DNA of 63,677 bases, the filler included, from Hausera hauseri (taxonomy: Eukaryota), in assembly GCA_046269625.1 (NCBI GenBank). It is 11 parts of 11 records of this genome, joined end to end, with 100 filler letters (N's around TTAATTAATTAA, not from the genome) between each part and the next. Parts side by side here need not be neighbours in the genome. Positions count along the whole stretch, not along the records: positions 44,163 to 49,472 come from JBJURY010283505.1; 10 more parts are not named here. One strand, written 5' to 3'. The notes beneath the pieces are model-generated. The model had not been told where the DNA came from. It searched no databases and saw only the letters and a list, made by a program, of their open reading frames with translations. How positions within the stretch are numbered: the first letter of the stretch is position 1; every line of letters starts with the position of its first letter. A program made the translations under genes and the position numbers. Shown in pieces: positions 15,491 to 63,200 of this stretch.

Positions 15491-17879
15491 AGAATTAAAG
15501 TAGTATTCCTTGTTAGTATTTTTAGTTTTACGTTTTTCTATATGCTCTTAAGCAGTAACCTTCCCATTAAAAAGAAATTACTGTACTACAAAATTATTAT
15601 TACAAAGTGTGAATATTTATGTAAGATATTATAGGAGTACAGTTCAAGAAAGGAGTTCCATTAGGTTTTCTGGTACATGTTATGATTAATAAAAATTTAC
15701 AACGTTATCTTATTTTTCTAATATTAAAGTCGTAACCAGTGTGTAACATTGATGGAGTTAAATTGCTAATAGTGATATGCTAATTATTGTACCTATTAAA
15801 AGCATCGTAGTTTTACATGTATTGTTGAGGTAATTATGAGGTATGATGTAGCATGCTGAGGTAGTTACTGTTAGAGTTAACATTACTTGTACTTGAAGCT
15901 GTAGGCCGTAATGCAAATTTGTGATACAGCATGACACAATGTTCCGAAACAAGTAGCAACAGAAAATAATAAATTAGCATTCAATTAACGAAGTTAAAAT
16001 GATATGTTGTGTTTAAACCTAAAGTTAAGATGTTAATTCTAAAGTTAATGAGCACGTAACGTTAATGAAATAGTTGCTAACAAAAGCAAATTGAAAATTA
16101 TTGAAGGCATAGTGATAACAATTACCGAAATTTAAAGTTATTAATCAATGTATGAAATGATTGTAGAAATTGTAATAATGTTTAAAAGTTTTTTTAAGTA
16201 TAATTTCAATCAAGAATTTATTTACAATAAGTACAAAAATATCAAAATTACAAAATTAGTGTTAATACAATGTAATCAATTTAGTTCCATTTTACTTAAT
16301 TACACTAAAGTCAGGCACTTAGTTACTAAAAAGAGTAACGTAAAGCCCCCAGAATTAAGAACTGTACCTACAAATAAATTTTGTAGCTAAATTAAGTAAC
16401 CAAACACCTAATATTGTATAGAAACTAATAAATTAGAACATTGAACTGAACAAAATTTTTACTAGAAAATTAGTATTTGACTCAAAATGTTTTTAAACCC
16501 TAGGGTTTATTTGAGTTAAATTTGGTTTCATTTCTCGAAAACTTTACTCAGCAATACAATTCTTTTGTGAAGAAGTTTTGGTCTTTTCAATTGGGATCCG
16601 AAACCAACGTAAATTTATTTTCATTTATTATTTAAATTTACTTGAGTTTATTTATTATCTTGGTTTTTAGTAAATAAATTCATTCCCACTAATTAATTGC
16701 GGTCGCAGCTGAAATCATAGTAAGCTACGCGAATCACACATAAATCACTAAAATATAAACAATAAGGGAAAGTAATTTCTACTTTTGAGTTAAATACCCT
16801 TCTCCAAGGAATTAGTTAAATCTTATACAAGGGATTTACAAAAACAAATTGCATAAATAGTTAATGTGCATTAAAATTCTTTGGGAACGTCTAAAAATTA
16901 GATTTGAATATTACCTTTGGGTTTTTCAAGAACGTTTAGAGTTCTTTTTTGCAAGACACGCAATTAATNNNNNNNNNNNNNNNNNNNNNNNNNNNNNNNN
17001 NNNNNNNNNNNNTTAATTAATTAANNNNNNNNNNNNNNNNNNNNNNNNNNNNNNNNNNNNNNNNNNNNAGCAATTTATTTCTTAAAATCAAAAATTTAAG
17101 CCATCATAAACGGATATGAGATATTCACCCTAACAGGATTCTCATGTAAAGTTTTAACGGCCATTATCACACCACTCGGTAAATTCCTAAAAGCTTACGA
17201 AGAAAGTAAATGGAAAGCGGATGTTGAACGACATGTCACTTACTGTAATCTAAAATGAAAAAGGAGACATATATTTAATTGCAAACTCAAATTCATCAAT
17301 ATCAAAACACGAAAAGATTACTCTGACGATGGCGAGCCTAAGGAAGGAGACTCCTTCTCCAGGATAAATAGACATAAAAGCTATTCATTTATAAAACCAC
17401 CGTTAACAATATTACCGCCAACTGCGCCTATATGTAAAGATTGTGAGAAACAATCTATGAACTCATATCAAACGGACATCTACAGAAAACCGTTCAACCT
17501 TGAGGATCCTTATGAAGAAACAAAACACTACGATGTATTACGCAAAGTACATACATCATTGTCCAGCAGTTTACGACCACAGAATAATTTATTCACCTAA
17601 AATATCCAGGACGAGTGAAATTCTATCACAATTTTCAAGAGACCACGAAATGCTAGCTTTTAGAAACCAAGAATTGCAGTTAACAGTTAAAACTCAGGAA
17701 ACGGAAATCGTCAATTGAGCGAACAATGAACTGTATCCAAATGGAGATCTAAGACAGTCAATCGACCAGCCAGTTGTAGTCACAGAAGTTACAATTAAGG
17801 GATATAAAGTATCAACAATTCAACATCTCAAAATAGCGCCGAATTACTATGGTACGGTAATCGAAGGTAGACCCTTCAC

Positions 17880-20800
17880 GAAAATTCAGTTATAAGGTTG
17901 GAAATTCTACGCACTGAAAGACACAGGATCCGAAATATCGCTTATAAAGCATGACTCAATACCAAAGTATCTACGGAAACAATTATATCCACCTCCAACA
18001 ACAGATCCAGGAAGTATTGGAGCTTTTGGACAGTCACCAAAAAGCAAATATCGATGGAACCCAAAAATTCACATAATAAGAAAATACTTTTACCAAGAAT
18101 TTTCATTGATGGAATGGACAACGGGTGATGTAGTACTAGGATGTTATTTGTAAAGACAACTACGAAACGTAGCAATAGTTTATCATGCCTGAAAATTATT
18201 ACAACTTGGTCAAATAGAAGGTGTAAATACTACTAAGGACGGAAAATTTGGAGAAGTATGGATTTCAGTAGACGAAAATATTCCGTCTAGAACAGAGGTG
18301 TTGATGTACGCTCCGATCCGTCAAGATGACGACCAACCAGTATATTTTGATCAAAAAGAATCATTAAACTCAAGAGTTGTACTCAGGAATATATTAACGA
18401 GAGTATCAACTGGCCGAGTACCAATCAGAATAGCAAATAGTGCACCGATCCCAATGAAATTGTACGCCAATACCACTTTGACTCATAAGTATAGAGTATC
18501 ATCTATAACTATTGAAGGAAAACATTACAAATGTGCCGAATTTTCACCTCACGTCGAAACCAAATTTTTACCCGAATTATAATACCGTTTTTACGAACTA
18601 CTTTGGCGTTAGAGCACAATCATTGCTAAATACGAAGAAGATATTGGTAAAGCTAAAGCCTTTAGATTAACAATTCCGTTTAAGCAAAGCCTGGCTCAAA
18701 TGATGAAATTGATCTGGAAGATCAAAAAGTTGCAAAAATGGCATCCTCATCCGCACTCGTTAATGGCCGAGATAACGAAGGAAGTTAAACGTATGCTTAA
18801 GACTGAAATAATTAGACTGAGCCACAGATCTTGGTACTCGCCCGTACTTATGGTTAAAAGGAATGATACTACGAAACATCGATTTTATATCGATTATGGA
18901 GCATTAAAGACTCTTATGATGAAGGGTTCCTTCTCATTACCATCAGTAAAAGGAGCCCTAGATAGACATGTCGGAGCAAAGTGGTTTACCATACTAGATT
19001 TGCAATCTGGATATATCCAAGCGGAAATAGAGGATGAAGACCTCTATAAAACCGCATTTAAAACACATGACGGTGTATAGGAATTTAACGTTATGCCATT
19101 TGAAATAAATATGGAACCAGCCATCTTTACTCGAATGGTGAACAAAATGTTGATGGGACTGGAATACGCCTTTGCGTACTTGGATAATGTAATGATCGTA
19201 TCACAAACGGAAGAAGAACACGTAAAGGATATCGAGGCCACGCTTATGAGCGTGGAGCAAGCATGATTGAAATTGAATCCTATAAAATGTAAATGGGCTC
19301 AAAATGCAGTATCCTTTCATAAAAATATAGTTGGAGAAGGAGGATTAAAACCGGATAAGTCATTGTTAAACAAAATATCAGACTGTATGGAACGTCAGAA
19401 TCAAAAGGAATTAAGACACTGGTTAGGTTTATGAGGATATTATGCCACTTATTTACCAGATAATTCGAAAATAAATGCACCCTTGTACAATGTACTTAAA
19501 AAAGGAACTAAATGGAAATGGACCGATGTCGAACAAAAGGCTTTCGATGAAGTGAAGAAAATTTTAACCAGAGAACGTGTTTTAAGGTATCCTGATTTTA
19601 ATTTACCGTTTATAATTAAAACTCATGACAGTAAAGAATGCATTGTATACGAGTTAGCTCAGAAACGAGACGATGAAGAGCTAGAGCATCCGATCGCTTA
19701 TGGAGGACGATCAATAAAGAAAGTCGAGAAAAACTATTCTGTTACGAAATTAGAAACTCTAGCTGTAGAAGAAGCTCTACGACACTAACGTTTATGTCAA
19801 TGGACAGAAGATTATAATTGTTACTTATCATAAAGCCGTTAAAACCTTAAGAGGTAGAGCAAATAACCCAACATGTAGACTCAACAGATAGGACGAAGAA
19901 ATTTCGCGATAAAATATTGAATTTCAATATAAGCCTGCACGCAAACATGTAGACGCCGATGCACTTTCAAGACTCAAAACTAAAACAAGCGCAATTACTG
20001 TAATGAGAAAAACTCAGCTACAAAATCTAGTAGATAGATAACAAGCTCTAACAATGCATAAAGCAATTAAAATTTCAATCGAACAAAAGAAGGGCAAAGT
20101 TATGCAACAAAACATCGTGTTTGCGTAAAATGATATAACCCCAAAAGGTCACAATATACGAAAATAGTTACAAAGAAATGGTCATATATATTATGTAACA
20201 GGAGAAAAAAGCCATGAAAATGTATTATATTACGAATGAAAAGGACCGAAATTAGTAGTCATACCAAAAGGGATTACGGATAGAAGTAATAATGGCGGAA
20301 CATAATTCATACTTAGCTGAACACGTCTTGGGAGAAGAAATTAGTAAGAATACTAAATAAGTATTACGAGCCAAGCATATACATTGATTTAAAAAGTAGG
20401 GTAAGTGCTTGTGAAGTATGTTAACAAACAGAGAAAAGCAAAAAATTACATTGTCAATCTCAAACCGATAAATGCACCGGAGAGACCAATGCAAGCGATG
20501 TCCATGGATATTGTAGGGCCTTTGCCTACAAATCAGAATTAATAAATACATCCTGACATGCATAGACTTATTAACTGATTTTGTCGAACTAATGGCATTA
20601 ATTGATCAAAAAGCTGAAACTGGCAGAATCCGCAGTAAGAAAAATCATCTGCAGATATGGATCGCCCGAAGAAATCTTAACAGATCGAGGAAGGAATTTT
20701 ATAAATGAATTATTCGATAAAATTACCAGAAGAACTGGGATGAATTTTTAGAAGGTACACAATTTGCTATTAATACTACCCCACATCCTGTGACTGGATT

Positions 20801-21170
20801 TACACCATTCTGTATGATGTATGGCAGAAAAGCCATATTACCGACAAACGTGGGAATGATACCGTATACAGCAAAACCAGAAGATTTAGATCAAAATTTT
20901 GTCAGTGTTATAGACAAGATACAAAAATGTTGGGAAGTGACAAAAGAGTTATCCCAAGGGTGTCAAAAACAATTTAAAAAACAATACGATAAGAAAGCTA
21001 AATTACATGATCTAGAACAAGGAAATTGGGTTTATGTACATTACCCAGTAGCCAAGAAAGGCACATCCCTGAAGCTCACTCGAACTGGAAGAGGACCTTA
21101 TGAGGTTATGAAAACCACGCCGACTACAGTATACATGAACAAAATAGGCAGAGAAGAAATCGTATCTGTG
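17880..21170 (+). mobile_element. pol: Degenerate Gypsy pol (PR-RT-RH-IN with GPY)
   Basis: FYALKDTGSEISLI (~17905), WYSPVLMVKR, LDLQSGY, AYLDNVMI, YPDFNLPFIIKT, HPIAYGGR..NYSVTKLE, HVDADALSR, SMDIVGPLP, LTDRGRNF, TGFTPF..YGR, GRGPYEV. Confidence 0.92.
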
Positions 21171-21679
21171 GTGCTCATTTTAGCCCATATAAAATGTGCT
21201 TTTACTGTTTGTTTTAATATTCAAATTTTTTAAGTTACAATTTCAATGTAATTTTATTAATGGCTGCATCCTCAATAAATATCCATTTTGTTATCGTTGG
21301 TTAATAGTGTTTTGATATTTTGATATTCAAGTGGCATCTCTATTTAATGTTAACAATTTATTGCATGCCAATGGATTTATTTATAATATTTCATTGAATT
21401 CTACAGTATGGAACTACGTACCAATTCCAAGTCGTACCAAAGTCGTCACTTTTCAAAATATCATTGATTCTAAATGCAATTAACGATTCCGTTATGAATC
21501 TGGATTTTCCATTACATTATTCAGCGAACTATCGAACATCTGATAATTGTAAGATACCTAAAACCCAGTCAAATTCTTCCCATAGAATGGATTACTCACA
21601 ATATTAAGAAGATTATTCCCACATTAGTGATATTCAGTCAGCAAACAATTTATCATTGTCAGAACATTGGGAATTTGGC

Positions 21680-28723: not shown

Positions 28724-29348
28724 GTAGTAGAGAGAGGAAGAAAGATAGGGATAAGAGTAGAGAGGGAAGGAAGTTGTGAAGCGGAGATGAAAGGAGTAAA
28801 AGACGATGTGTGAGGAGAGAGGGAGGAAGCGAGCACCGAAGATAAGGAAGGTGTGGAAGGAGAAAGAGAGAGAGAAGACGGTGAAGAGGGACAAAACGGA
28901 AGAGAGCAAGAAGATAGAGAAATTGGTGAAGTCAAAATGGTGTTTGGCGGAGGAGGTCTTGTAAAAGGAGAAAGCAGGTTGTCACCAGGGAATGGAGGAG
29001 ATGTTAATAGGCTTGAAGGTGGAGAATCGTATGTGGAAAAGGGGGATGAAATATAAGAAAAAGTTGAAGTAGAAGTCTTGGGAGAAAACGTAGGCAAAGT
29101 GGATTAAAAAATTGAGCAAAGATGGGAGGTGAATTTTTGGATTGCTGTGCGTTGTATAAAGATGTTGGTGGAGAAGTTGTTTCGATAGGAGCCGTATCGT
29201 CAATGAAGAAAGCCGGCTTAGCGTTGTTGATGTGGACTGTTACTTCTTTGCCGTCCTTGAGAATGATGATGTTGTAAGAGTGTAAACGAATTACTTTGGA
29301 AGGGCCAACATACTGAGGTTAAAAACCACACGACGTCTGATTCTTTAG

Positions 29349-38713: not shown

Positions 38714-40095
38714 CTAAGGGCTCAACCAGATGCAGAGACTTGACAGCATAAGTGGATAGCAGGAGGAGGAGATTTGGAGAGTCTCCTTCCACCTTCGTAT
38801 AAGGTAATTCACCTCCTGGTGTCTTTGGGGGCTTCTTATAATTTTTTTTTGGGTGTACTTTCACTGTAGCATTCTCATTAAAAAGCAACGATTTGGTTTT
38901 GTATTGTCCTCATTGTTTACAGCGTGACATGTTTTAACTTATAAAAACAATTTTGTTTCACGAACATAAGTTAAAACATGAACCAATGCAATTTTTTCCT
39001 TGTAGTTTTTATTTATTAATGAACTAAATTGTTTTTCAAGTAAGCGGTTTATGAACCAAAGTGTTCGTCAAGTAAGCGGTTTATGAACCAAAGTGTTCAT
39101 GAAAAGTATAACTGTATACCAGAGCCTTACAGTGTAGAGAATACTGACTGTATCGAGTATGCAACTAATGCTTGCAATGTCCAGACTGTTGTTGGTGATA
39201 CTTGGTTTCTTGTTTAGGACACAATTTAAGGAAAACACAGAGTTGCTGTTCATTGACGGAAGAATTAGTTTACCTTCATCTTCGGGTGATAGTTGGCTGA
39301 CATCAGACGTTGTGGATGTGGTGTGATGTTGATAGACTGCATTTTGAATATTTATTTTTCTGTCCATAATGGTCCGAGTATTCGGTGAAGTCTACTGTCC
39401 ATTATAACGAGCGTCGAGCCCAGCGTGTGTGTTGCGGGAACGGAATCACTAAGTAGCATGCCTGTGGTTAGGCCAAGAGCTGTTTCTTGCAGTGCTGCGA
39501 ATTCGTCCACCAGCCAGGTGTTTAGGTACTTGGCAGTGCCCATGTGTTTAGGTACTTGGAAGTGCCCTGAGCTAGTACATTTTTTTTATGTATGGTACAA
39601 ATGAATGGTAACTGAAACTGTGGTTATTTTTTCGTCTATGTGAGCGTTCTGTTTGTCTTTTTTAGGGTCTATGTCGCAGTTCTGATAATGCTTGATCGCT
39701 ACACGTCGGAAAATTTGTAATGTTGTGTGTTATTAAAGGTAATGGTGACGCACGACCTTTGTCAGTATCCTTTTATTGTTATATTATGGGATGTATGCGA
39801 TGCGTTACCGGTAAGTTTTTTCTGAACTGCCTTTTCTTTATTTAAAGAAGGCCTATAGTAGTGAGGTCGGACGTCCGTGTACATTGTCGTGCACGTTAAA
39901 AATTCCTTGGCAGCTGGAAGCGAATCTAAGTAGAGTTGTCTAACGAGAAAAGTAGTATAACCAGCACATAATAACTACGATTAAACTAATTTTTTTTAGT
40001 ATTAACCTCCCTACAGGCTGCCGTGGTTATTTCCCAGTATCCTTTGTTTCCTTCCAGTGTATGCCATTGATCCTAGTGTACTGTTCCTATCACAT

Positions 40096-43000
40096 AAGGT
40101 TGGGTATCATACGGATACTGGAGGCGGTTTAGGTCGCCTTTTTCATGCTTTTGCGCACTAAGAATTACATGTTGAGTCATGGAAGGGTCATATTTTCTAT
40201 TAAGGTTGGGTACCATAAGGGTACTGGAGGTGGTTTAGATCATCTTCTGTATGTTTATCCATACTTATGGGAGCCTTTTGGGTCATGAAAGAATCATATT
40301 TTCTGTTAAGGTTGAGTATCATAATGGTACTGGATGTGGATTAGGTCGACTTCTTCATGCTTACCCATGCTTATGTGAGCCTTGTGGGGCATGGAAGGGT
40401 CATATTTTCTGTTAAGTTGGGTTTCTTGGGGGTGCTGGAAGAGGCTTAGGTCATCGTCTTGATGCTTACACATGCTTATGGGAACCTTTTGGGTCATGGA
40501 AGGGTCATATTTTCTGTTAAGAATTGGGTATCATAAGGGTACAGGAGGTGGTTTAGGTCATCTACTTCATTTCTTAGGCATGCTGGGTCATGAAATGGTC
40601 ATATTTTCTTTCAAGGCTGGGTATCATAAGGATGCTAGAGGTGGTTTAGGTCATCTTCTTCATGCTTATGGGAGCTTTGTTGGGTCATATTTTCTGTTAG
40701 GTTTGGGTATCATAAGGGTACTGGAGGTGGTTTATGTCATCTTCTATTGCTTATGCATGCTTATGGAAGCATGAGTTGGCAAGTTTTCATGTCAGTAACT
40801 TTTCATGTCAACAACTTTCATGTCAACAACTTTGTCATGCCAGCAACTTTGTCATGTTGGTAATTGTTCATATCAGTGACTTTGTCATGTCTGCAGCTTT
40901 TCATGTTGGCATCTTCACATGCCAACAATTTTTCATCTTGGCATCTTCACATGCCAACAACTTTTCATCTTGGCATCTTTTCAGGTCTCAACTCTTCATG
41001 TTGGTAATTGTTGTCATGTCAACAACTGTTCATGTTGACAAACTTACATTGACAGAAATCAAAGGATACATTTTACTTGAATTTTCTCATCTGTTTTTTT
41101 AACTTTACTATGCACAGATCCTGCACACGTCAAATGAGAGCTGATCCATTGATAGAGGAAAAACTCATGTGACAAAAGTCAATAAAAAATGAAATATAAA
41201 AGAAAAAGAAATCAATTATAACAAATAAAACAAACTTCAGAAAAAAATGGAATGTGATGTTTATGTTGGCAACTTACATTGACAGAAATCAAAGGATACA
41301 TTTTACTTGAATTTTCTCATTCAAAACAAACTTCAAAAAACAAAAGGAACGTGGTGTTTTCCTCTATCTGTTGGACCAGCTCTCACTTGACATGTGCATA
41401 ATCTGTACATAGTAAAACAGCAAATAAGAAACCTATAGTAAAATGTATCCTTTGATTTCTGTTCATGTAACTTGTTGACATGAACAGTTGCTGACCTGAC
41501 AAAAATTACCAACACAAAATGTTGAGACATGAAAACTTGCCAACATGCCAAAGAGAAAACTTGCCAACATGCCAAAGATGCCAACATGAAAAATCAATAC
41601 ATCATAAGAGGCCAACATAAAAAGTTCTTGGCATGAAATTTGTCAGCTTGAGAAGTCACTAACATGACAAAAATATTGGGATGTAAAGTCGCTGACATAA
41701 AAAATGTAAAGATGAGCCATGGCAAGATGTCAATATGAAAACTTGTCAACATGAAAAGATGCTGACATGAAAACTTGCCTACACGACAAAGTTGCCAACA
41801 TGAAAAATTACAAACATGAAAAGATGCACAATGAAAACTTGCCAACATGAAAGCTGTCAACATGAATGTTGTTGGCATGAGAAGTCGCTGACATGACAAA
41901 ATCATTGACATGAATTTTGTTAACATGAAAAGTTGCCAACATGACAAAGTCGCTGACATGAACATTGTAGACATACGTTATCAGGATGACAAAGTTGCCA
42001 GAATGACAAAGGTGCTGACATGAAAGTTGTCGACATGAAAAGTCGCTGACATAACAAATTACCGACGTAAAATGTTGCTGACATGAAAACATGTCAACAC
42101 GAAAGTTCTTGACATGAAAATTTGCCAACATGAAAATATACCAATATGAAAAATCCTAATAGGAAAACTTGAGGCATGAAACACTACCAACATGAAACGT
42201 TATTGACAATGACAGTTATCATGTCGCTGACATGAAAGTTGCTGACATGAAAGTTGTTGATATGAAAGTTGTTGACAAGAAAAGTCACCAATGTAAAAAG
42301 TCGCTGACATGACAACTTGCTGAGACACATGCTCACCTAAGCATGCATAAGAATAAAGAATGCGACCAAAACCACCCCTAGCACCCTTATGATACCCAAC
42401 TGTAACAGAAATTATGACCCGTCCATGACCAAAAAGCTACCTTAAGCATTTTAAGTATGAAGTAGACGACCTAAACCATCACCAGTACCCTCATGATACC
42501 CAACCATAACAGAAAATATGACACTTCCATGACCCAAAAGGCTCCCATGAGCATGAAAAAGACGATCTAAAGTGCCTCCAACATTCTTATGATACCCAAC
42601 CTTAACAGAAAATATGACACTTCCATGACCCAAAAGATTCCCATAATCAGGAGTAAGCATGAAGAAAATGACATAAACCACCTCCAGTACATGTATGATA
42701 CCCAAGCCTAACAGAAAATATGACCCTTCCATGACCCAAAAGGCTCCCATGAGCATGAAGAAGACGACCTAAAGTATCTCCAACACCTTTATAATACCAA
42801 ACCTTAATAGAAAATATGACCCTTCCATGACCCAACATGCTCCTATAGACTTGATTAAGAATGAAGAAGACGACCTAAACCACTTCCAGTACCCTCATGA
42901 TACCCAACCTTAACAGAAAATATGATCCTTCCATGACCCAAAGGGCTCCATAAGTATGCATAAACATGAAGACGATATAAACCCCCTCATGCACTCTTAA

Positions 43001-43140
43001 GAAACCCAACCTTAACAGAAAATATGACCATTCTATGACCCAAAAGGCTCCCAATAGGCTCCCAAAAGCATGCATAAGCATGAAGAAGACAACCTAAGCT
43101 ACCTCCACCACTCTTATGATACGCAACTTTAACAGATAAT
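40096..43140. repeat. About 3-kb modular palindrome (foldback-like): 100-120-bp tandem units, 14-16-bp minisatellite and a unique block, mirrored
   Basis: AAGGTTGGGTATCATAAGGGTACTGGAGGTGGTTTAGGTC..GGGTCATATTTTCTGTT units at 40096-40770 and their complement at 42340-43140; CATGTCAGCAACTTTT-like units at 40780-41040 vs 41480-42320; unique block 41040-41165 vs 41350-41480. Confidence 0.88.
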
Positions 43141-44162
43141 ATGATCGATCATTGCTGTGGTAATCTGGGTCGATGCATCTCCAAGGAATCCTTGAGCGGT
43201 CCCTGGCAATGCCTCTAAGATACTCCAACACCACGATGATGGGTCTACAGACTCCTACTATAACCTATAATTTTCTCCCTCTAAGAACTACTCACGTGAG
43301 GCAAAATCAGCCCTATATCATAGGAAACAATACACCTAGACATGGAGGTGTCAGGAGGTCTTGGTCGCTAACTTACAACACTACCCTTATGCGACAGGGC
43401 ACCTGATGCTAGCTAGCCATTACACGCCATCTCCCCCGTCCCTTCAAACCTTACCCCAACATCACTCATATTACGCCTAACTAAAGAAAAAGACATTACA
43501 TCATCAATATGATGACGTTCACAAAAAGACTGATGATGATGATGTATACATCTTCTACTACCTATATATGTCATTAATAACGATGACGGTGTATCTAACT
43601 ACAGAAATACCAACACAAATATTTAATTACCTAAATATATCTAATCGATGTGACACAAGGTCATGGTCACTAATAACTAATAAAGCTTTATAAGGCGCAT
43701 GATAATACCACCATTCCCGCCCCATCGCCCTAACCCTAACTACTCTAACTATATAAAAAGAAGAATTTAATTACGTCACCAAAAATAAAAAACGCAGAGT
43801 TTGCTGAAAATTACCGAGCCTTGTTATCGTATTCCTCTTATAGCCTTACTATAGCTAAAATAATGCGCTATATGAGGCTATTATATTGGCCTTTTCGTCT
43901 TGTCGGACGGTCTTGATAGCAGAAAATGCTGGCTGCTGTCCTACTGAACAGCTTCTTTCATGCGTTAAACTTGCCAATGTTTGAATTACAGATTCTGCCA
44001 CAATATGAACAGGCTACACCTGCATTAATTTCTCCTGATTCTTTGCGTCTACATCTTTTGTCNNNNNNNNNNNNNNNNNNNNNNNNNNNNNNNNNNNNNN
44101 NNNNNNTTAATTAATTAANNNNNNNNNNNNNNNNNNNNNNNNNNNNNNNNNNNNNNNNNNNN

Positions 44163-44499
44163 CTCCCTTTAGACTTCTGATGGAGATTTTTATTGGTGTG
44201 TACCATCTGTCCTCTTTTTCCCCGTAGTTCACTGCTAGAATTCTAACATTTCTGCCATCTGGAGCTAGCTTAAACAATTCTCCATTCTGTTCTATGTCGT
44301 CTTCTAAAGGTTTCTGTAGGCATGTGATTGGCGATCGAGATTTCATTAATTCGGTATGTAATGTTAGTTCAATAATGATCTTTGTTGGAATATCGGCAAT
44401 TCTGAATTCTAGGGCGTAATCCATAAGACTAGAGCAACACAGCTCATACGTACTAAATTTCCATTGTTGACCCCTTTGAGTATTCCAGGGTTGTCCCAC
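44163..44499 (-). pseudogene. Unknown ORF, last visible member of the virus-like cassette, runs off the contig
   Basis: Open frame of more than 110 codons, co-oriented with the cassette; no recognised motif. Confidence 0.35.
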
Positions 44500-45000
44500 G
44501 ATCCTATATTAAATTTCACCGTCTGCCAAATGTATGTACATTTGCTGGTGTGTTGGTTCATAGGGAATTAAGCCTTTCAACTGGTACATCCTTCGTGTCT
44601 AATCGCATATAAGCGAATTATCCGATTTTCTTCTAGGCCCTATTTTAATCCATGGGATATTCTATTTTCTTAGTCGATTTCTAAACATGTATTCGCCAGG
44701 TTCTTTCCAATTTGGTGATATAAACTTTTTGATCCAAGATTCAGGACTGTAATATGCTGCTGTAAGAAGTCATTCATATAGTGTCTAGAACTCTGCTCTG
44801 GGATTTTCGTCTTCTCGACCATACTTACGCTTATGAAATAAAAACAGGTTAACGTTAAGACAGATCATCGTTTTAAAACAAACCATTTTCTCAGTCTGAT
44901 GATAGGATAACCCGATCTATAACTGTCAGGTTATTCCATCATAAATTTTGTCTCGGTACCTTTTACCAGTATATCTTTCTCTTGATTTTTACGTCGCTTA

Positions 45001-45990
45001 TTAGTTTTTGGAAACTAAAAAAATGGTCGTTGTTATTATGCTGACAACGAATGTTGCCAGACCAAAAATTGATATTATCGATAAATTTGTTGGCTCAGTT
45101 AGATTTTCCGTAGTAATCGTGTTCTCGGTACTAGTATCTTTATAAGCTATTGCTCGAATTTCGTTTAAAGTTCGTAGTGTGAAAGTTTTGTGCCTTTTGC
45201 CTTCTGCAAAAAATTGGATTACATAATCGAGTTCTGGTCGTAGTAGTTTACATTCGGTTTCCTGACGACCCCCTTTTAATATTACAATTTGATTAGTATG
45301 TAGGATATGACATTCAATTTTAATATCGTAGTTTAATTTCTCTCCGACGAAAAACACAATTTTATAGTGGTGCGTTAAATACTTAACAGGTATACCTTCT
45401 AATTTTCTTTCGGGCATTTTACTTGAAATGACGATATTAGAAAAACTGCTTAAAACAATAGTCGGTTTTCTTGCAGTCACGTAGTAAGGAATTTTTCACA
45501 TTCAAACGTTCTCTTCTGGATAAGTTCTTAAGGGAATGCTTGATTTGCCAGGTCTGATCTGAAAGTTCGAATTGTATTTTATATTCGCGACCGATTGGTA
45601 GTTCACAACATGGATTTGGTAATTTAGGTCCATTATAACAATATTTCGCTGTGGGACTCGACTTCTTTATTGGTACGAATTGAATGAAAATTTGTCTATC
45701 GTTGGCTAGTACTATTCTAGTTTTTATCTGAATACATTTTTCTTTATCTTTGGAAATTTCAATTATATTATCGTCCAAAATTCGTTTCTGAGAGTTGGAA
45801 ATTCGGATCATTTTTCTAATTTTATCTCTCTGACCCGACTTGGAACTGGTATAGTTATTTTTAACTGTGGACCTAGCTCGGCTTTGATCATGTTTGAGTC
45901 TTGATATGTGCATGAGTTTCTGAAATTTATCTCGCAGCACTGTTGGAAATCTTCCGGAGGAATATTGCAATTTTGTGTTATATTTTTGTT
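45001..45990 (-). pseudogene. Type I membrane protein with possible fibronectin-III-like domains
   Basis: CCELPIGREYKIQF and CKLLRPELDYVIQFFA (LxPxxxY-like), Thr-rich stalk, TM SIISIFGLATFVVSIITTTIFLV. Confidence 0.5.
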
Positions 45991-47610
45991 CTTATTTCGA
46001 AATACTATTTGGAAAATTGTGAATTCTATAGGTAGCCCAGTAATGACTCCCATTTTCCTTGATAGCCAAAGTCCTCTAATATGATATGCATAGCTCGGTT
46101 CAATTCATGCGTATGCTGGCGTGGAAAGTCAAGAAATTTTCTAAATGCTTCAACTACCTTCCGTCTGTAAATACCTGTAGTCGCGGTGTAATAAAATTTG
46201 TCGTCCTTTATTCCTTTTACTAAGTTGGTTCCCGTTAATTTACTTGGCGGAGTAGTTATGTCTCAATTTGATAAACTTATCAAGTCAGTTTAAATACGTC
46301 TGAACATGGGTCTCTCCTAGACTCGTTTTACACTCTTTCAAAATCTTTGCTTAAGTTAAGTTTGCTAGTAAAACTCTAGTAATTGGTTTTGCCAACCTCA
46401 GCATATTCCGATATAATACTGGAAGTTCTTGCACGAATCTCTTTTCTTCTACATTTATGGGTACATTTCTTTTTTCGCATTCGTAAGTCAGTGAAACCTC
46501 GTCGGTAACTCAACCAAAGACACCTTCTTTCATTGAAATTATTGGTGACGCTAACTCGGGATCAGCATATATAAGAGCCAGTTTAGTTCTCATGATTTCC
46601 GAGTCTAATTTTCAATCATTGATTATCATTTCATAATTTACAGTGCGGTTATTCCGGCTTGTCCTTTGTAATAGAAGTAGTCATCTCTATTCATCTAGTA
46701 ATCCTCAATTCGTACGTCTTATGCTTCGAGTTTGAATGCCTTAATATTTATTTCCGTTTCGGCTACAAAAATGCTTCACAACTAGTGGTGTACAACATTA
46801 CGTCACAGCGTGTGAGTACGCCTTTTCACGAATTTTAATCCGTAAGTATCGGAAACTAATATGGTTGGCATAGGTTGTACGGCTACATGTCGCGTTTTCG
46901 AACCAGTATCCATACTGTTTACATAACGTTTTCTCAACGTTTCGTTAAACTTTAGTTCTTTAATTTTGATAAAATTACAATCCGTTTTAATTGGAGGTTC
47001 CCAAATTTCGACTGAATTGCTAAAAGTACAAGTATCGTCTTGTATATGACACTTGATTTTCAGTAGAGTTTAGTAACGCTAAGAAACATCGCTTTTTGTG
47101 TCCGAATTTCGGTTTCATAAAAATCGACAACTACTACGCCTTCATCTATTCCTTTTTGCAGTGTCATATTCGGCCTCACTGCATACTCCGGTATGTATAT
47201 CTAATTTTCCGACTGCTACTTTAAATGACCTGATTATTTTTCCTTGTATTATTAGTTTCATATCATCCCATTTTAATCTAACAGTTTCTCTAGCATGTTT
47301 ATAGTGTTGTCTTTCTAGGTTCATTGAGATTGGTGGAGTTGTTGGTTTTATTATCAATGAATGTCCACGCATTTGTCCAGTGGAAAATACCACGAGATAT
47401 ACGTAATATAATATTCCGTCTAACGAAATTAGCTCACGCTGCTGATATAATACGTACTTTTTATCTTGTTTATAATTTATGTGGCCTCGCGTAGTCGCAC
47501 GTTTCTAAATCGATCAGTGAATATTTTTGGCCAAGTTTGAATTTGTCACAGTCATACACGGTAACAGTTCCCATTTGCTTTACTAACACCATCAAAGTTA
47601 GGAAGTTAAT
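45990..47610 (-). pseudogene. Chuvirus-type (class III-like) envelope glycoprotein
   Basis: Signal-like INFLTLMVLV then VYDC..YSLIDLETC; YVLYQQRE; GQMRGHS; VAVGKLDIHTGVC..Y; KCHIQDDTC..IWEPPIKTDCNF; RTKLALIYADPELAS..EGVFG*VTDEVSLTYEC..QELPVLY..KPITRVL; TGIY..FRKFLDFP; all collinear with the chuviral G pattern. Confidence 0.8.
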
Positions 47611-48084
47611 TAGCTAATTCGATTCGTTTCCTCAGTTATTACCGGTTAAGTTTCGTACCTCATCTTCGAGTCTGCTATCGCCATTGATAGAGGATGGTCT
47701 ATTCTGATGTTATTCCTTTTCAAATAGTTTGGACCAATTTACTTTTCGAGGTAATTTTCTAACAGCTTTCCGGGCTAGACTAGTGGCTCTGTTAAACTCA
47801 TTTTCTCGCGTTGGATTTGTTTTAATGGCCTAATATAGTAATACATTTCTCAATTCTTCTAGTATTTTCTACCATGATTTTCCCAATTAATATTTCATCG
47901 GCTAACGTGCTCTTTGACAATCTAAAACGAGAATTTCTCATCGTTATGGCTGCATTAATGTTGGCCTTTTCTGTTTCGTCTAGTACATCGCCGCAGAGAC
48001 TAGAGTAGTTTAGGGCACGTACTAAATTCTTCGTGAGTTCGTTTAATTTTTAATTATCTGCATTGAAAGTAGGTATCGACATTT

Positions 48085-48681
48085 ATCTTAATTCTCCAAT
48101 CAAGTCTTCATTATAGTCAATTTCTCGTATTTTTCTTGGTCTACCAACGGGGCGTTTCTGTCTTGCTGTGACTAAATTCATATCGTATTGTTCCTTGTCT
48201 TCGTCTGTTTGCAAGTATTTGAAATACATTACCGCATCTCGCACTCTCATCATTCGCCCTACAAAATGGTCAGCTTTAGCTTTCTATATGGCTTCTTTTG
48301 TCTTTTTATTGACGACTATCGTTACTGTACAATTTGCTTCATCTGGGATGATCCCATCGTCTATTAAATGTTCTAATTCGTCTAATATTCGGCCTCTAAA
48401 ATAGAGTATATAGTTTAATTCGTTTCCGCCGCCATTATTTATTAAACATGGTTTTACATCTCTCACAAAGGAGTGTATCTTAAACTCACATCCTTTTCCA
48501 TCCATCGACGCAGACGACACTTTACTTTTATCGTCACATCAGGTTTAGCCCTTAAAATTTTAGTATACTTTTTTATTAAGAGTTTTGGCACAGCACCATA
48601 AATCGCGTTTTCACTAGATAATTTAGTTACAATAGGAACATGTTGCCTTAACTTATTTTCGATAATATTTATGTTAATCAC
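48085..48681 (-). pseudogene. Unknown ORF ending in an AT-hook motif
   Basis: ORFs 48463-48681 and 48284-48520 join by frameshift and continue past one TAG to KRPVGRPRK (48131-48157). Confidence 0.5.
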
Positions 48682-48682
48682 T

Positions 48683-49300
48683 TCAATTAAATCTCTCCGT
48701 TAGTGCTGAATCCAGAAGCATTTTCACATTGAATCTCCAATTCTGTGGGTATATCGCCGTTTCACAAAGGTGTACTGGGGTTCTCGGATTCTCAGCAGCT
48801 ACTGCATATAAATACGCATCCCATTCTGGAACGTTTTTATTTTCTGGAGGTCCATAGTCAATTATTGGCATATCTGGTTGTTGGACTGTATTTGCATTCC
48901 GTACCATTTCCCTTACTTCGCGCAATTTCTGTGGCATTTTGACCATTTGGCGCATCCGGAAACAACGTCCATTTCCGGAAACTTGATGCAATAATGTTAA
49001 CAGCTGATAGAGTTCATCTGCCTGAATCAATGCTTTTCTTGATAATCGGTTAGTTCGGAGGTCACATCTCGTTGCCATCTTTGTACAAATTCCGATTTAT
49101 TGGCTATTTCTGATTCGGTAAGAGCGTATTTACATCTGTAGACTTCCAGCTCTACTTAACTCATTTATTTCTGTTTTTCTTTGGTCGGTACGAATTTGGG
49201 TTTTCTCAGTGTAGTTGTCTCATTTTCTCATCGCTGATTTCGGCCATTTCAACTACCAACAGCGTTAATTTGCTAATCTCTTCTAAAATTTTAGAGTCGG
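48683..49300 (-). pseudogene. Unknown ORF (helical N-terminal part) of the virus-like cassette
   Basis: 131-aa open frame plus frameshifted upstream coding-like sequence; abuts the next ORF. Confidence 0.4.
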
Positions 49301-50879
49301 GATTAGAGTGCCACTTAGTTACATTAAAAAATTAAAATTGTAATTTTCTTAGGTCTTACCCTGCTTACTTGTTCTCTTTGATGAAAAAACACTAAATATG
49401 AACGATTTCATAAGCAACAAATCATCGTATGGAGCATTTGATGCCTCGGGTGCAGAGATCCTATCTTTCATGNNNNNNNNNNNNNNNNNNNNNNNNNNNN
49501 NNNNNNNNNNNNNNNNTTAATTAATTAANNNNNNNNNNNNNNNNNNNNNNNNNNNNNNNNNNNNNNNNNNNNCCGTGTATTACGGGAGAGATTTGTGATC
49601 GATTTGACATTGAAAATACAATATTTTACATTAAAAATCAAATCGACGAACAAAGGTTTACACAACTCCATTCAGTTTCCTGAGTTGCGAATGACGACGT
49701 ATTCAACAACATCGAACAACTCGCTTGCGATGGTATCTGGAAATATTAGATGTCCGTATCGTGATCATGTACCGAATTGTGCTTACAAAAATGTCTACGG
49801 CTTTGTATTAACTGTTTCATGCAAATAAATAAATGTTCGTATTTTCTTCTTTCGGTAAATAATGTTCATGACATGTTTAGCACTATTGGTCAGTTGAGTA
49901 ATTCAAAAACCATAAATACGGGTAGGTTATAGTAATAATAGTCATGGGCTGTAATGGAAATCGTACACATTTATTACGAATGACTTCAGTAACATGGGGG
50001 TAATTTGTATCATTGTGATAAGACAATACTCACAAAGTAAATGTCTATTGTTTACAATGGAAACAAACCTTTGATATAAATATGGATGCAATTTTATTTC
50101 ACATTTATCTTGAAAAAATTTCTTGGGAAAACAATTCAGCCGTTGACAGTCTCTCAAAAAAGCCACGGTACACCGAATATTCGTTCAGATATTCCCGGTT
50201 TCATAATATATACAACTTACATTATCTGCGCAACGCTATTCAATTGTCACTGATGCAGACGGTCAAAGTCAAACCGGTGAAATATGTTCGATTGGCCAAA
50301 AAGATCAGCGACGATTATTTCGATACAATGGAAGACAATTAGAAACGTTGGCAGTGATTTGGCGTTGAGTAACGATATCCGAGATACATCGTCGATTTTT
50401 CTCAAAGGAAATATGGCGAAAATTGTTAATATAGATGGTGGAGAAACAGCAGCAGCAGCAGCAGTTTTTCCACCGGAAGGAGCTAAATGCTACCCGACAC
50501 TGAAGCTCAAGGGATTCAAGGAAAGGAGCGGCGTAAAATCCCCAATGTGGAAAATGGGGAAGTTTACTATGATTTAACTGACTTACTTTGTGTGTTTTGT
50601 GATTTTAGTTTTTCTGTGATCAACAAATTAATGTATTCGTGTTTTCTCGTGCAAGGTTATTGTTTTACTTTTCTATCTTACTTAATAATAATGGGTTAAG
50701 TAAGTAACCGAAAACAAAACACAAGACATTGAACAAAATACGTTATTGAAATATACAAGAAACAATATACAACGGATAATTGTCAATGACTGTGGCACAG
50801 TAACTGAACTGAACTGATTTGTCCGAACCGACTGAGCACAGATTGTTTGGACCTGCGTTTATTTCAGCCGCGAATGTTC

Positions 50880-53800
50880 ATACGCCCAAATCTTATTTCG
50901 CCCTATTCACTTTCGTTTATCACCGTTACATGATAAAGCGCTAGTTATTGTGTACAGCTGGTGCTCAATTGATCAGATGATCGTTTAAGACAACAGCCAC
51001 TGATTGTCCTACTTCTGCTGCTTCTTCATATATACGTCGATAATCACCGTGGTCGATTTCCGTCTGCCTCAGCTGGACTCCTTTTTCGCACATTTTCGGT
51101 CCACAGTCCGTCAGAAGACTGGCAATTTGGTCGTAGGAATATTCATTCCCGATACTGAACCTACCTTCACTTTCATCCTTGAAGCAGCCGATTTTGTTGG
51201 TGATCGTGCTGCTGTACAACGGATGATCCGGCGGATAATTGGACGTGTCTAGAAGTTCATCTGCCATCATTCACAGGAGCAGTTGGTTGCGATTGACGTT
51301 TTTCACCTCAAGGAAAAATCTGTCTGTTACCCGCAACGATACTGATTTCACAGCCGTCGAACATTTGTCGGTAACGTGCCAAGTCGCGATACTTGAGCTC
51401 GTATATTCGCATCTTGCTCAGGTCGAATACCACTTCTCCGATGTAACTTGGCCGGTCCAGAACGACTTTTCTGTTTAACAGCACCGCAACCAATCCATCG
51501 ACAATGTGCATTGACCACCGAAATTGTGCCTTGCTGGTATACGTAACCAACCGCTTTTCGTTGTTTCATAGGCGTACATCGAGCCTCATTTTCAGATTCT
51601 CCACTGTTTTTCCATACAGAAAATTGTTTTTCAGCTTGTAGTAGTCCTCGAACTTTGTACAATGTGCGGCTCGTTTCTCCCAATTTCCATGGATGTGCCT
51701 TTTGAATATGGGAGCCTGAGCAACTCGGATTGCACGATGCAGTTATGTGACGCGTACACTCAAATGCATGTAAAATCGCAACAGACGACAATGAACTATG
51801 TAATTTTGCAAGGGTTCATGCGTCATAAGCAGCTTCTTCACCTTCGAGCCCGGCGGACAATGGCTATTTGGTGCGACCAATAAATCGTCCAAAACGTCAT
51901 GCAGCTCATCTGGTACCACGAGATCGACCTCCATCAGGTATCCGCTGGAGCTGTTTTCTGCTCTTGTCGTGTCTGCTCTCGATAGATTTTCCAGTATTGT
52001 GTTCAGGTCCTGTTTGTCAACTACCCATTCGAATGAACCGTACGGCAAGGGTTGTGAAAGCGCCCAGCCATACAGGTTTTCAATGTCGATATACAACAGT
52101 GATGTGGTATCATCACTGATTACGTGATGCTTGTTGACAAATGTCATGCCGCCACGAATACCGACATCAAACATTCGGTACATTTCCGGTCTTGAAATAG
52201 CTCGATATCACGATCCAGTGGCATCAGAGCTGATGCCCAACTCATTTCGGGTAGTTAGTAAAAGTTGAGTGGCCCCAGCCTATCCTTTGCCAACGCTTTA
52301 GTGCTAAACGCCTGGAATATATCGGCTAATAAGTACACGTCCAGTTTAAGATACTGGAGCATGTACTCCAACATATTTCTGCAGCCCACTTCTGTCCAAG
52401 ATTTTTGTGCTCTCCGATATTCGTCTTCTGTGATGTCTGTCCATCGCGGCGGTAATTACTCTGCTGTTCGGAATCACTCATATGATGTTGAAAAGTCATG
52501 GAAATATGCCTTTGCTGTCTGCAATGTGTGGAACTGCGTTGGGGTTATCGGTACATTTGCCAAGGCATTTACCAGCTTCGCTAGTGATTCATTGAGAAAT
52601 TGCAATGAATCAAGGAAGCGTACCTGGAAGCGGTTTATGCGTACTAACAGTGGCAGGTACTTCTCCATTGTTGGAATTATGGACAGTTCCCAGTGCGGAA
52701 ATCCGTTGATGGCCCACTTCAGTATATGGTGCCAATCATAACCTCGGAAATTATGAAAGATCACCGGTAGAAATAGCCGCACACACCTTGTTAAATTTCA
52801 TGCGTTGCATGCTACTGCCAGGTATCGACCGGTGAAATGATCATGGTCCGGTACGAGCCGTTCCTGTGTGTCAAAAGCAATATTTTGTGGCACAGGTAAC
52901 ATTTATCGGTGGCAGCGAAAAGCAGCGGTTCATATTCGCCTGTCCATATCAAGGGCTTAGTGCTATTGTTACTGTACCGTGGTGCGATTTCTGTTTCCAC
53001 TATCGTTTCCAACTGTTGCAGGTAATAGCGTATACAGTTACAGCAATGAAAAACGTAACATTGCAGTTGTCCGGCGGCTTTTATTGGAACAAACAATATA
53101 CCGACGGCTATTGGAATGTGCTTTTGGTCGTGTACGTTGTGTCGCTGTAGGATTGCCTCGATATCGGTATATATCATATATGCCGGACTGTTTGTTTTCG
53201 ACCAGTTACTGAATCTCAGCTCTTTTTTGACTGACATGACGTACATTGTTGCCCCTGATGAACTTTGTCTGCACAGCGCCACGTTTTCCCCATGTCGCTT
53301 TTGACGTGAAACCATGCAGACATGTAAGGTACCATTTACAATTGATACGCCTTTTGATGAGTTGGTGGTGATCCATGTTTAGTAGTCTGTCCAAGTTGGT
53401 TACTGCAACGTAGTGAAATTTATCTGCTTGCTTCAACAGCAACAAATTTAGCGAGCGTCCATTCGGGTTCCGACTGCGACAAATTATATCCACGTGTGGG
53501 TTTTTGTATAACTCTTAGTCTGCTGGTATTTCTACGATTGTGTTGTACCGGAAAACGTTGATTGCCAGAATAGGATTACGCCGTTAAAACGTCGGGATGG
53601 ATTTCAGATTCATCGGCATCCAGTTTTCATTGAATTCCAATTCGGAAAAATACTGCCGGTACTGATTTGGACGATTTTCATGATTTCTAACCACTTCGTC
53701 GTATTTTAATATAGGCAGAATATTGTAAATAAAACAATATTCGCCGCCGGTGTTTTGTACATTCACTACCGCCAGAGACTGCTTTAGAGATGCAGGTGTC

Positions 53801-54260
53801 GGTATGAATGACCGTTCAGATAAATATACCACGTCACTCGACTTTGTTATGATAAAGCCGATAGTGGCAATTCATATAATTCGCAATCCGCTACCCTTTT
53901 CGGTATAATTGAAGATTTTCTCATCCAACTTTTCGCCTACATCGGCAATAAAATCTTCCGAATATGGTACGACTCGATGTGATAGGTACCATTGTTTCCT
54001 GTCACCTTCAACGTTTTCAAATTCTGTAAGTGCATAATATTGCACTTTGCAGTGGTGTTGGTGGAATTTTCTCACTTCTGATTCCAACCGGCTGCGCACA
54101 CTGAACGGAACATGCTTCAGCTGTAGTGTTGTCCCTGACATGTTTACTTTCACATCCACGTACGATTTGTTTAGATCGTACTTGATAGTTATTGAAGGTT
54201 CCTCCTGCTACTGCTGCTGCTGCTGTTCGGTACTGTTTCGGATGTATTCGTCAAGACTTG
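50880..54260 (-). pseudogene. Near full-length Polinton pPolB with endonuclease VII-like insertion
   Basis: KGSG, VVNVQN..CF, LLLL..HY..VTNLDRL, YTDIEA (ExoI), DHDHFTGRY..ACNA, FHNFRGYD (ExoII), FLDSLQF, YLKLDVYLLADIF, IRGGMTF, YIDIENLYGWALSQPLP, KLKNNFLYGKT, DTSNYP, IGCFKDE. Confidence 0.95.
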
Positions 54261-60249: not shown

Positions 60250-63200
60250 GTGGTTTGGCAGCTTGCGTACCATGACGACCCCCAGAGCTATACCAGCGGG
60301 AGTTTTACTCCTGGCAGGTTCAACCAAGCTGGGCAGGTCTGCGCGGGTAGGGGTCAGACAAAAGTGAGCACCCTGGTCCTCCAGGTTGGGGGTTGGGCGT
60401 AGGGTTAGCAACCCAACACCGTAAAAGAAAATTCTGCTACAGAAACTGCAACTACATCGATTGAACTTGGACTTGGTCAAGAAGGTTCCTCTTTTGAAGA
60501 GTCCATGACGTGCTCTGGTGAAAGCCTTCGGGAAGCCAGCTCACCGACGAACCTTCTGAATATCAAGTCTCCAACCAGGATAGGGACCTGGAACATCAGA
60601 ACCCTTTATGATAGTGGTAGAGTCCAGGAAGTGGCCAAAGAAATGAGGCGGTACGAACTCAAGGTCCTAGGACTCAGTGAGACCCGATGGAATGGGAGCG
60701 GTCTCAATAGACTGACATCTGGAGAGACCATTATCTATTCTGGACATGAAGACCAAGACCATGACCACACACAAGGAGTAGCTCTTTTAATGTCACCAGA
60801 GGCAACCAGAGCAATGCTAGAATGGAAACCTGTTTCTCCACGGCTAATTTCAGCAAGGTTCTATGCTAAGGGGCGGAAAGTAACTATCATCCAGGGCTAT
60901 GCACCCACAAATGCTGCTACAGAAGAAGAGAAGGAAGATTTCTATTGCTCTCTCCAGACTCTGCTAGACCAATCACCTAAGAGGGACATCAAGTTTATTA
61001 TGGGCGACCTGAATGCAAAAGTGGGAGCAAATAATGAGGACAGAGAGCTTCATATGGGAAAACATGGCGTAGGCACATGCAATGAAAATGGAGAGCTTTT
61101 TGCCGACTTCTGTGCTTTTAACGACCTTATAATTGGTGGAACCATCTTCCCACACAAAACCATACACAAGACAACCTGGTCCTCCCCAGATGGCAAAACG
61201 GAAAATCAAATCGATCACATCACTATTTCTCGGAAGTGGAGAAGAAGCCTACTTGATGTCAGAGTGAGACGAGGGGCAGATGTAGCCTCTGATCACCAAC
61301 TGCTTGTTGCAACTGCAAAGATCAAACTCAAATCTTTCAAGGACCCTGCAGGTAGACCTCATTACAAATTCAACACACAATATTTGAAGAGTGATAGTAC
61401 AAAGGAAGTATTCAACTGTGAGGTTAGAAACAAATTTGAAGTACTTGCTGGACTGGCAACAGACGAACCCATGGAGCAATATTGCCTTACCCTCCAGGAG
61501 GTATGGAGAGATACATGCACAGAGGTCCTAGGGAGAAAAACGAGAGAACACAAGGAGTGGTTGTCTGCAGAGACATGGGCCAAAATTCAGGATCGAAAAG
61601 AACTGAAAGAGAAGCTCAACAAATGTCAGAATGAAGAGCAGAAAACAAACCTAAGAACTCAGTATAGAGAAGCAAATAAATCTGTGAGGAAGAGTGCAAG
61701 AGAGGACAAAAAACGTTTCATCCACGAAATGACAGATGATGCGGAGAAGGCAGCTGGTAAAGGAGACATGAAAAGGTTATACGAAATAACAAGAACCCTA
61801 TCAGGAAGAAATACCAACACTAACAAGCCAGTGAGAGATGAACAGGGTAACATCATTACCAGCGACTTTGGACAGAGAGCAAGATGGGCTCAACACTTTC
61901 AGGACATCTTGAACAGACAACCTCCAACACATATTCCAGACATACCCCCAGCAGTGGAACTGCTAAACGTAAATACTGGCCCTCCCACTAAAACGGAAAT
62001 CATCAAGGCCATCAAAAGTGCAAAAAGTGGAAAGGCGGCAGGTCCAGACGGCATACCACCAGAGGCGCTAAAGGCAAACCCCACAACTTCAGCCGAAATG
62101 CTACATCCTCTGTTATGCAAAATTTGGGAGCAGGAACAAGTCCCGTCAAACTGGAAACTGGGATACCTGATTAAGCTACCAAAGAAAGGCGACCTCACCC
62201 AATGCAACAACTGGCGAGGAATCATGCTACTGTCCACACTCAGTAAAGTCTTAACCAGAGTAATGCTCGAACGGCTGAAAGATGCCCTAGACAAAAGATT
62301 AAGGCCAGAACAGGCTGGTTTCCGACAAGACAAATCATGTACTGACCATATTGCTACACTTCGAATCATCATAGAGCAATCCATCGAATGGCAGTCCCCA
62401 CTGTACATGATTTTTGTGGATTTTGAGAAAGCCTTCGACAGCATTGACAGAGAAGTGATTTGGAAGCTGATGCACCACTACGGAATTCCACCAAAGTTCA
62501 TTAACATCATCAAACAGCTATATGAAGGCTCGTCGTGCCAAGTGATACACAACAATAAGCTTACTGACCCATTCCCAGTGAGAACAGGAGTAAGACAAGG
62601 ATGCATGCTTTCACCCCTAATATTTTTGTTGGTCATTGATTGGATCATGAGAAAGACAGTCTCCAACAACAAAAATGGCATTCAGTGGACCTTAACTCAA
62701 CACCTGGAAGACCTGGATTTTGCCGACGACATCTGTCTTCTTTCTCACACACAACTAAATGCTCAATCCAAATTAAACAGACTTTCAGAAGAAGCACAGA
62801 AAACAGGACTACTCATCAACCAAAAGAAAACAGAGGTAATGAGAATAAATAACAAACTAAATGACCCAATTGAGCTACAGGGGAAGAACATCCAGGACAC
62901 GGACCACTTTACCTACCTTGGAAGCATGGTTAGCAAAGACGGTGGAGCTGATGACGATATTCGAAGTCGTATAAATAAAGCCAGGTTTGCCTTCAACACC
63001 CTGCACGCTATCTGGCACTCCAAAGCACTGTCTCTACAGAACAAGATCCGGATTTTCAATACAAACGTTAAGGCAGTGCTCCTCTATGGTTCTGAAACTT
63101 GGAGAGTCACCATTTCTAACACCAAAAAGCTCCAGGCCTTTGTCAACAACTGTTTGAGGCGTATATTAGGTGTTAGATGGCCGGAAAAAATAACCACTTC

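Follow-up and report, generated by a model that had tools for sequence, protein, structure and literature searches.

A decayed envelope gene in the Hausera hauseri assembly, most probably from a Burro/GYPSM1-like Ty3/gypsy retrotransposon

The minus-strand region 46002-47613 of the analysed DNA from Hausera hauseri (GCA_046269625.1) very probably represents an env, now decayed, from a Burro/GYPSM1-like Ty3/gypsy LTR retrotransposon, that is, from an errantivirus with the GAG-ENV-POL order and an HSV/gB-type envelope. The region is part of a contig placed between two linkers in the window, by which the whole stretch of 63,677 nucleotides is meant, filler included. An initial annotation had described it as an endogenous fusion glycoprotein of chuvirus type. 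The features of the contig, together with a second element found in the same assembly, are as follows.

44163..49472, no strand: complete contig, bounded by two N linkers, from a diverged high-copy repeat (linker positions, contig coverage)
48683..49096, minus strand: unassigned upstream open frame of 137 codons, same repeat family (open frame, contig coverage)
48508..48699, minus strand: helical module, which in relatives precedes the ubiquitin-like domain (relatives-only profile)
48308..48418, minus strand: remnant of a ubiquitin-like domain (relatives-only profile)
48131..48157, minus strand: AT-hook-like motif, preceding YDC by about 196 codons (position and motif)
47650..48080, minus strand: region that occupies the place of the Bcl-2-like domain in relatives (position only)
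47560..47613, minus strand: N-terminal env segment just before YDC, aligning with the relatives' signal-peptide region (model positions 9-26)
46002..47613, minus strand: env pseudogene, ectodomain of a predicted class III (Monjiviricetes/HSV-gB-type) fusion glycoprotein (profile, 539 codons)
45720..46040, minus strand: junction, in which about 110 codons separate env from tail (no helix, no pol match)
45530..45715, minus strand: possible first fibronectin-III-like repeat, weak (MAFFT alignment only)
45130..45411, minus strand: predicted fibronectin-III/Ig-like beta-sandwich, homologous to the relatives' tail domains (profile and model)
45001..45130, minus strand: stalk rich in Thr, then a transmembrane helix (starting near 45093) and a stop codon (sequence, hydropathy)
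44163..44940, minus strand: unassigned downstream coding-like remnant, same repeat family (many contigs cover the region)
17069..21230, plus strand: second decayed element, in which the C-terminal part of env leads into protease, RT, RNase H and integrase (separate contig 17069-23235)

The envelope pseudogene and its relatives

The landmarks of a glycoprotein of about 540 codons, proposed in the initial annotation, were all recovered on the minus strand at their places in the pseudogene: YDC at 47548-47556, a cysteine cluster at 46975-47057 that reads C-x6-C-x8-W-x7-C, ELPV at 46417-46428, GIY at 46167-46175 and FP at 46122-46127. The read-through of 539 codons, with X placed at the breaks, consists of six frame segments separated by five frameshifts, the frame changing near 47475, 47165, 47083, 46667 and 46314, and contains about 14 in-frame stops, one or two of which hinge on the placement of segment borders. 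Since the longest stop-free piece is only 120 codons long, an ORF track would miss the gene, as had been claimed.

The env profile was built from 16 relatives, with no window sequence included, and searched against six-frame chunks of the whole window. The chunks match it collinearly, at approximately model positions 7-552 of 656, over 47613-46002, and the best of them reaches 72.9 bits, while the maximum obtained in local triplet shuffles of the contig was 10.0 bits (0/200 reached the score). The joined read-through scores 267 bits against the relatives' profile; its segment borders were set with the same profile, so that only the chunk test is free of bias. The env match is not a product of chance. 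Full-length single-frame Pfam scans missed env, and one single-frame piece of 150 codons matches PF24664 (Monjiviricetes_fusion) with E 0.0014 and 17.1 bits, under the cut-off of 27. Identity to 20 relatives is 20.3-27.5%, and 8 of 14 conserved cysteine columns are kept, the other six being lost. In the tree, which lacks a viral outgroup, env forms a long branch that is weakly sister to P0001 (support 0.795). The low identity (20-27.5%), the long branch and the lack of a viral outgroup were counted against the Burro-like reading.

The pseudogene ends before the membrane-proximal region and the anchor, and no hydrophobic helix follows the ectodomain in any minus frame. At its N-terminal end the hydropathy of the segment 47560-47613 stays below the threshold of 1.6, which makes the assignment of this segment as a signal peptide a weak one. 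With the env anchor and all of pol lost, and with stops and frameshifts throughout, no working protein can come from this copy; the copy at 44163-49472 is non-functional.

The phmmer search with the central env piece against 1.84 billion representative proteins gave 24 matches at E 0.001 or better, of which 23 contain PF24664; P0007, a DUF6348 repeat, was dropped as a false match (1/24, a repeat artefact). The relatives score 42-320 bits against PF24664. The closest of them are not viral G proteins, as the six best matches are all gypsy polyproteins. In 11 of the 23 a retroviral protease and/or RT lies downstream of env in the same chain (RT in five), and the remaining 12 are short env-only proteins without pol, which were likewise counted against the Burro-like reading. 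Among pattern matches, 3/56 in metagenome_contigs were confirmed as env relatives, and none in viral_contigs (0/23) or genome_contigs (0/3); a word-index protein search with the env piece confirmed 0 of 82 candidates, the comparison with phages gave no match and that with PDB sequences a chance match only. The closest relative, P0001, corresponds to HBK71150.1, an NCBI hypothetical protein of a Flavobacteriaceae MAG; the presence of a gypsy env polyprotein in this genome is most likely due to contamination of the bin with animal DNA.

Two relatives, the contigs L001 and L002, hold single ORFs of 3426 and 3703 residues, in which env is followed by protease, RT, RNase H, integrase and a tail. 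Env is preceded in L002 and L003 by gag with zinc knuckles and by a weak ubiquitin-family match; the ubiquitin-like domain of the relatives matches PF00240 weakly (E 0.005-0.03), and P0012 carries a Bcl-2-like domain (PF00452, E 0.00096). Downstream of the giant ORF a separate exonuclease ORF was observed in L001 (10617-12107) and L002 (12085-13473), belonging to the RNase_T family (PF00929, E 1.4e-5 and 0.0011).

The structural comparison with class III fusogens, suggested in the initial annotation, was run on the intact relative L001, the ectodomain of which was modelled with AlphaFold (pLDDT 75.5, pTM 0.49). The model resembles chu-like viral glycoproteins, best that of Tacheng tick virus 4 (E 1.8e-33), and also herpesvirus gB (best E 2.2e-12), with the viral glycoproteins among the top ten structural matches being only 16-22% identical to L001. 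The presence of PF24664 in the relatives and the fold match of L001 indicate that the initial annotation was right about the protein family, and that env probably belongs to the PF24664-type class III fusogens. The Chuviridae-type G assignment stands for the fold and family, and not for the nearest homologues, which are env domains in gypsy polyproteins.

Flanking modules, the second element and the question of origin

The env region is flanked on its contig by remnants that align with the head and the tail of the relatives' polyproteins. The best match of the window to the helical-module profile lies at 48699-48538 (14.5 bits, E 0.008, 0/200 shuffles), this module having been picked for the profile test after an earlier pairwise match. 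For the ubiquitin-like profile the best match in the window is at 48412-48311 (E 0.019), reached by 0/200 shuffles with a thin margin of 11.8 vs 11.2 bits. Together, the two pieces match the head of the L003 ORF with a tblastn E of 1e-6. The AT-hook-like motif has a counterpart in the relatives, where a GRP[KR] motif precedes YDC by 97-224 residues. The Bcl-2-like profile stays at shuffle level on the contig (82/200 as good), and the spacing fits the relatives. For the 137-codon frame further upstream, Atlas gave no named family and no match to the relatives was obtained.

On the other side of env, the tail-domain profile has its best window match at 45366-45184 (E 1.6e-5, 0/200 shuffles). The domain at 45130-45411 was modelled as a beta-sandwich (pLDDT 79.6 in the best of five models, 45-65 in the other four), the structural neighbours of which are mostly FN3 domains at a middling level, i.e., best Z 8.3, rmsd 2.3-2.6 and 75-79 aligned residues, with a best Foldseek E of 2.2e-3. 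The possible preceding repeat at 45530-45715 is not among the top profile matches, and for the tail ORF Atlas gave 0.80-0.83, which was taken as a lead only. The downstream remnant at 44163-44940 has no Pfam match in its frame. Two further candidates found no support: the exonuclease second ORF of the relatives at 44940-44163 (184/200 shuffles as good) and an integrase C-terminal remnant near 45920 (140/200 as good).

The best window matches of the helical, ubiquitin-like and FN3-like profiles all lie in the minus strand of this one contig, in the order found in the relatives, and it is supported, at the level of sequence, that the flanks of env belong to the same retroelement. No viral Pfam domain was found in these flanks. 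Neither gag nor a long direct repeat, LTR or primer-binding site was found on the contig, which ends about 1.9 kb upstream of env. These absences, the lack of pol and the three profiles at shuffle level (Bcl-2-like, integrase C-terminal and second ORF) were also counted against the Burro-like reading.

The second decayed element, at 17069-21230, begins with an env tail at 17073-17216 (14.2 bits, 0/100 shuffles). Its pol matches the L001 polyprotein with a tblastn E of 5e-100 and contains Pfam matches to RT and RNase H. The env tail lies directly before pol there, so that env and pol are linked in this assembly too. A dUTPase-like stretch between protease and RT was noted by eye.

It might be proposed that the region is a genuine chuvirus (Jingchuvirales) glycoprotein EVE, for which viral RNA was reverse-transcribed and inserted alone or into a repeat, and both the PF24664 match of the env piece and the chu-like structural neighbours of the L001 ectodomain, led by Tacheng tick virus 4, are in line with such an origin. 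However, the low identity of these viral structures to L001 speaks against it, as does the central piece, which scores 76.6 bits against the retroelement profile vs 17.1 bits against the Pfam family (different models, hence a rough comparison); moreover, the flanks are modules of a retroelement polyprotein and the whole contig is high-copy. A chuviral EVE is accordingly considered highly improbable, and the origin implied in the initial annotation is wrong or unsupported, in view of flanks that match head and tail modules of gypsy polyproteins and of those homologues that carry protease and/or RT. The Burro-like retrotransposon env is the reading that is followed below.

The repeat context named in the annotation turned out to be an artefact. 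Short contigs make up the window, each separated from the next by 44 N, 12 A/T bases and another 44 N, with N runs at 8070, 12702, 16969, 23236, 27285, 33928, 44063, 49473, 54475 and 59268, and the gene resides on the contig 44163-49472. The contigs being joined artificially, neighbourhood across the linkers is meaningless, and the satellites, the DNA polymerase B and the LINE of the window are not shown to be linked to env. For the same reason a Polinton/Maverick fusogen reading was dropped, as the DNA polymerase B (50-54 kb) that had suggested it is on another contig.

Several other sequences were observed on these contigs. At 50900-54200 (minus strand) a decayed, Polinton-like, protein-primed DNA polymerase B (PF03175, E 5.9e-8) lies on its own contig, and 23429-26496 (minus strand) contains an integrase core (PF00665, E 6.4e-9); a frame close to it, for which there is no Pfam match, looks like a Polinton packaging ATPase. 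An apparently intact non-LTR retrotransposon ORF of 1030 codons, with endonuclease and RT, was found at 60409-63501 (plus strand), and the 3′ part of another gypsy family is present in two copies, 77-86% alike, at 8170-9180 and 28912-29921 on different contigs. Satellite arrays of 106 bp in opposite orientation surround a degenerate 16-bp array at 40060-43170, and a Mariner/Mos1 transposase HTH remnant (PF17906, E 1.2e-10) was seen at 13466-13819 (plus strand). The only host-like gene seen is a rhodopsin-family GPCR fragment at 10109-10519 (plus strand; PF00001, E 3e-8), for which a word-index protein search confirmed 0/526 candidates.

Loss of pol and the copies of the repeat

Protease, RT, RNase H and integrase gave no significant match on the contig when the proteins of 12 relatives were used. 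From the end of the ectodomain to the end of integrase there are 1251-2548 residues in five relatives vs about 110 codons here. Since the pol genes are missing between env and tail, the sequence reads as that of an internally deleted copy or as an assembly chimera.

One public sequencing run, possibly the one from which the assembly was made, contains the stretch; no RNA run was among those listed, which says nothing about expression. Its contigs that align to the 5.3-kb piece number 3310 and cover all 30 bins; 66 of them are identical at 99% or more, 200 at 95-99%, 1004 at 90-95% and 2040 at less than 90%. Such a number of mostly diverged contigs implies a high-copy, diverged repeat family across head, env and tail, the depth sums giving no copy number. 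This copy is one of many diverged copies; abundance is what the contigs demonstrate, and the spread was probably by retrotransposition. Among the contigs listed, none spans the env/tail junction, another point against the Burro-like reading.

A short-read assembler may have fused sequence from two copies, taking env from one and the tail from the other, in which case no deleted copy would exist. This is in keeping with a fragmented assembly (contigs of 4-10 kb) of a high-copy family, with the summed depth being lowest at 45756-45932 (43.8 vs thousands elsewhere) and with no contig among those listed covering the whole stretch. Yet the junction bins are covered, as are all 30 bins, and about 300 nt between env and tail are unlike either module, which a clean repeat-mediated misjoin does not need; furthermore, old LTR elements often carry internal deletions. 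Altogether, a chimera seems unlikely. Somewhat less probable still is a non-autonomous derivative family, composed of head, env and tail without pol, which would have been amplified in trans and would not go back to a single post-insertion deletion. It would fit the observation that head, env, tail and the downstream region are all multi-copy, as well as a depth of 43.8-181 in the junction bins vs about 6-10 for near-identical single contigs; on the other hand, the depth sums do not give copy number, env has a far greater depth than the junction, the contig shows no LTRs, and an env devoid of its anchor would bring such a family no function.

Relation to known elements and the membrane tail

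The modules of the proposed retrotransposon copy can be set against three groups described previously. In Burro/GYPSM1 of Schmidtea (Jurka, 2007; Grohme et al., 2018; both as cited by Arkhipova and Yushenova, 2019, PMC6431247) the relevant section of the review gives gag, Ubi2/SUMO-like, BCL2-like, env, protease, dUTPase-like and RT modules, with env, which matches mononegavirus fusion glycoproteins, placed between BCL2 and protease; it also reports that the copies number in the thousands and that fragments in decay occur in Dugesia japonica. The sequences described here share with this account an env which resembles mononegavirus fusion glycoproteins and has a ubiquitin-like domain upstream, the placement of env between gag and pol in intact relatives and the many decayed copies. 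They differ in that this copy is devoid of the env anchor and of pol, in that the Bcl-2-like domain and LTRs were not detected, in an identity of only 20-27.5% to the nearest relatives, and in the FN3-like membrane tail, the word 'fibronectin' occurring 0 times in the review text available (PMC6431247).

HSV/gB-type ENV proteins in the GAG-ENV-POL order are described for Nematoda, Bryozoa and Platyhelminthes in the main text of a recent survey (Chary and Hayashi, 2026, eLife, PMC13524379). The ancient errantiviruses of that survey (Platyhelminthes C1a) have in common with our relatives the gB-like fold and the GAG-ENV-POL order, and the domain I-II motif pattern of the Smed_errantivirus_1-6 ENV proteins looks like that of the relatives, as compared by eye only. 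Unlike those elements, which the text presents as intact and with three ORF regions, the env described here is a pseudogene with 6 of its 14 conserved cysteines lost. Likeness to the Chuviridae/Jingchuvirales glycoprotein and its EVEs, as far as the sections at hand describe them (PMC10084718; PMC7642597), consists in PF24664 and the predicted fold. The arthropod Jingchuvirales-derived EVEs are covered by Dezordi et al. (2023, PMC10084718); in contrast to chuviral EVEs, including the mosquito BEL/Pao captures, the partners of env are here modules of Ty3/gypsy polyproteins, in which env comes before pol, and env is no free viral gene. A link to BEL/Pao pol was not found; no Pao domain is among those listed for the relatives, in which env is followed by gypsy-type PR-RT-RH-IN. 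The layout, as well as the likeness to mononegavirus glycoproteins, had been published in what these articles show (PMC6431247; PMC13524379), and the suggestion that the finding extends the record of the family is wrong or unsupported.

In intact relatives the giant ORF codes for gag, the helical, ubiquitin-like and Bcl-2-like domains, a signal peptide and the anchored class III fusogen, and then for pol, continuing through protease(s), RT, RNase H and integrase to a last module, a type I membrane protein that contains fibronectin-III-like domains. For L001 and L002, such a giant ORF with env before pol and an FN3-like membrane protein at its end was found directly. The polyprotein of intact ancestors would have been cut by its own protease, and env would have entered the secretory pathway via its signal peptide. 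Herpes gB and rhabdovirus G are trimeric class III fusogens and, by analogy with them, env may act as a trimer through which virus-like particles fuse with other cells.

An FN3-like membrane tail is present in five of the six relatives that extend past integrase (P0001, P0005, P0025, L001 and L002) and was not recognised in P0024; it is also seen in the strongly diverged copy described here, the host of which may not be a planarian. No FN3-like post-integrase tail was found in the printed text consulted, and it may be annotated in the figures and supplements of PMC13524379, in Grohme (2018) or in Jurka (2007). In L001 one more FN3-like domain, accompanied by a signal peptide, a stalk and a transmembrane helix, was observed at 4823-5104, between the proteases and RT, in addition to the two that lie after integrase.

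Herpes gB needs partner glycoproteins. By the same analogy, one may speculate, with considerable doubt, that in Burro-like elements the end of the polyprotein is released as a second surface protein, which would partner the class III fusogen in attachment or regulation; it would possess a signal peptide, one or two fibronectin-III-like domains, a Ser/Thr stalk and a transmembrane helix. The role of the tail as attachment partner of env is a guess. If true, it would matter for how env-carrying gypsy elements choose their target cells.

The copy itself is a dead member of an already known, Burro-like kind. In invertebrate assemblies, glycoproteins that look like those of chuviruses are often env proteins of retrotransposons, and they should not be taken as marks of past chuvirus infection. 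A host outside the planarians would also widen the range of Burro-like elements.
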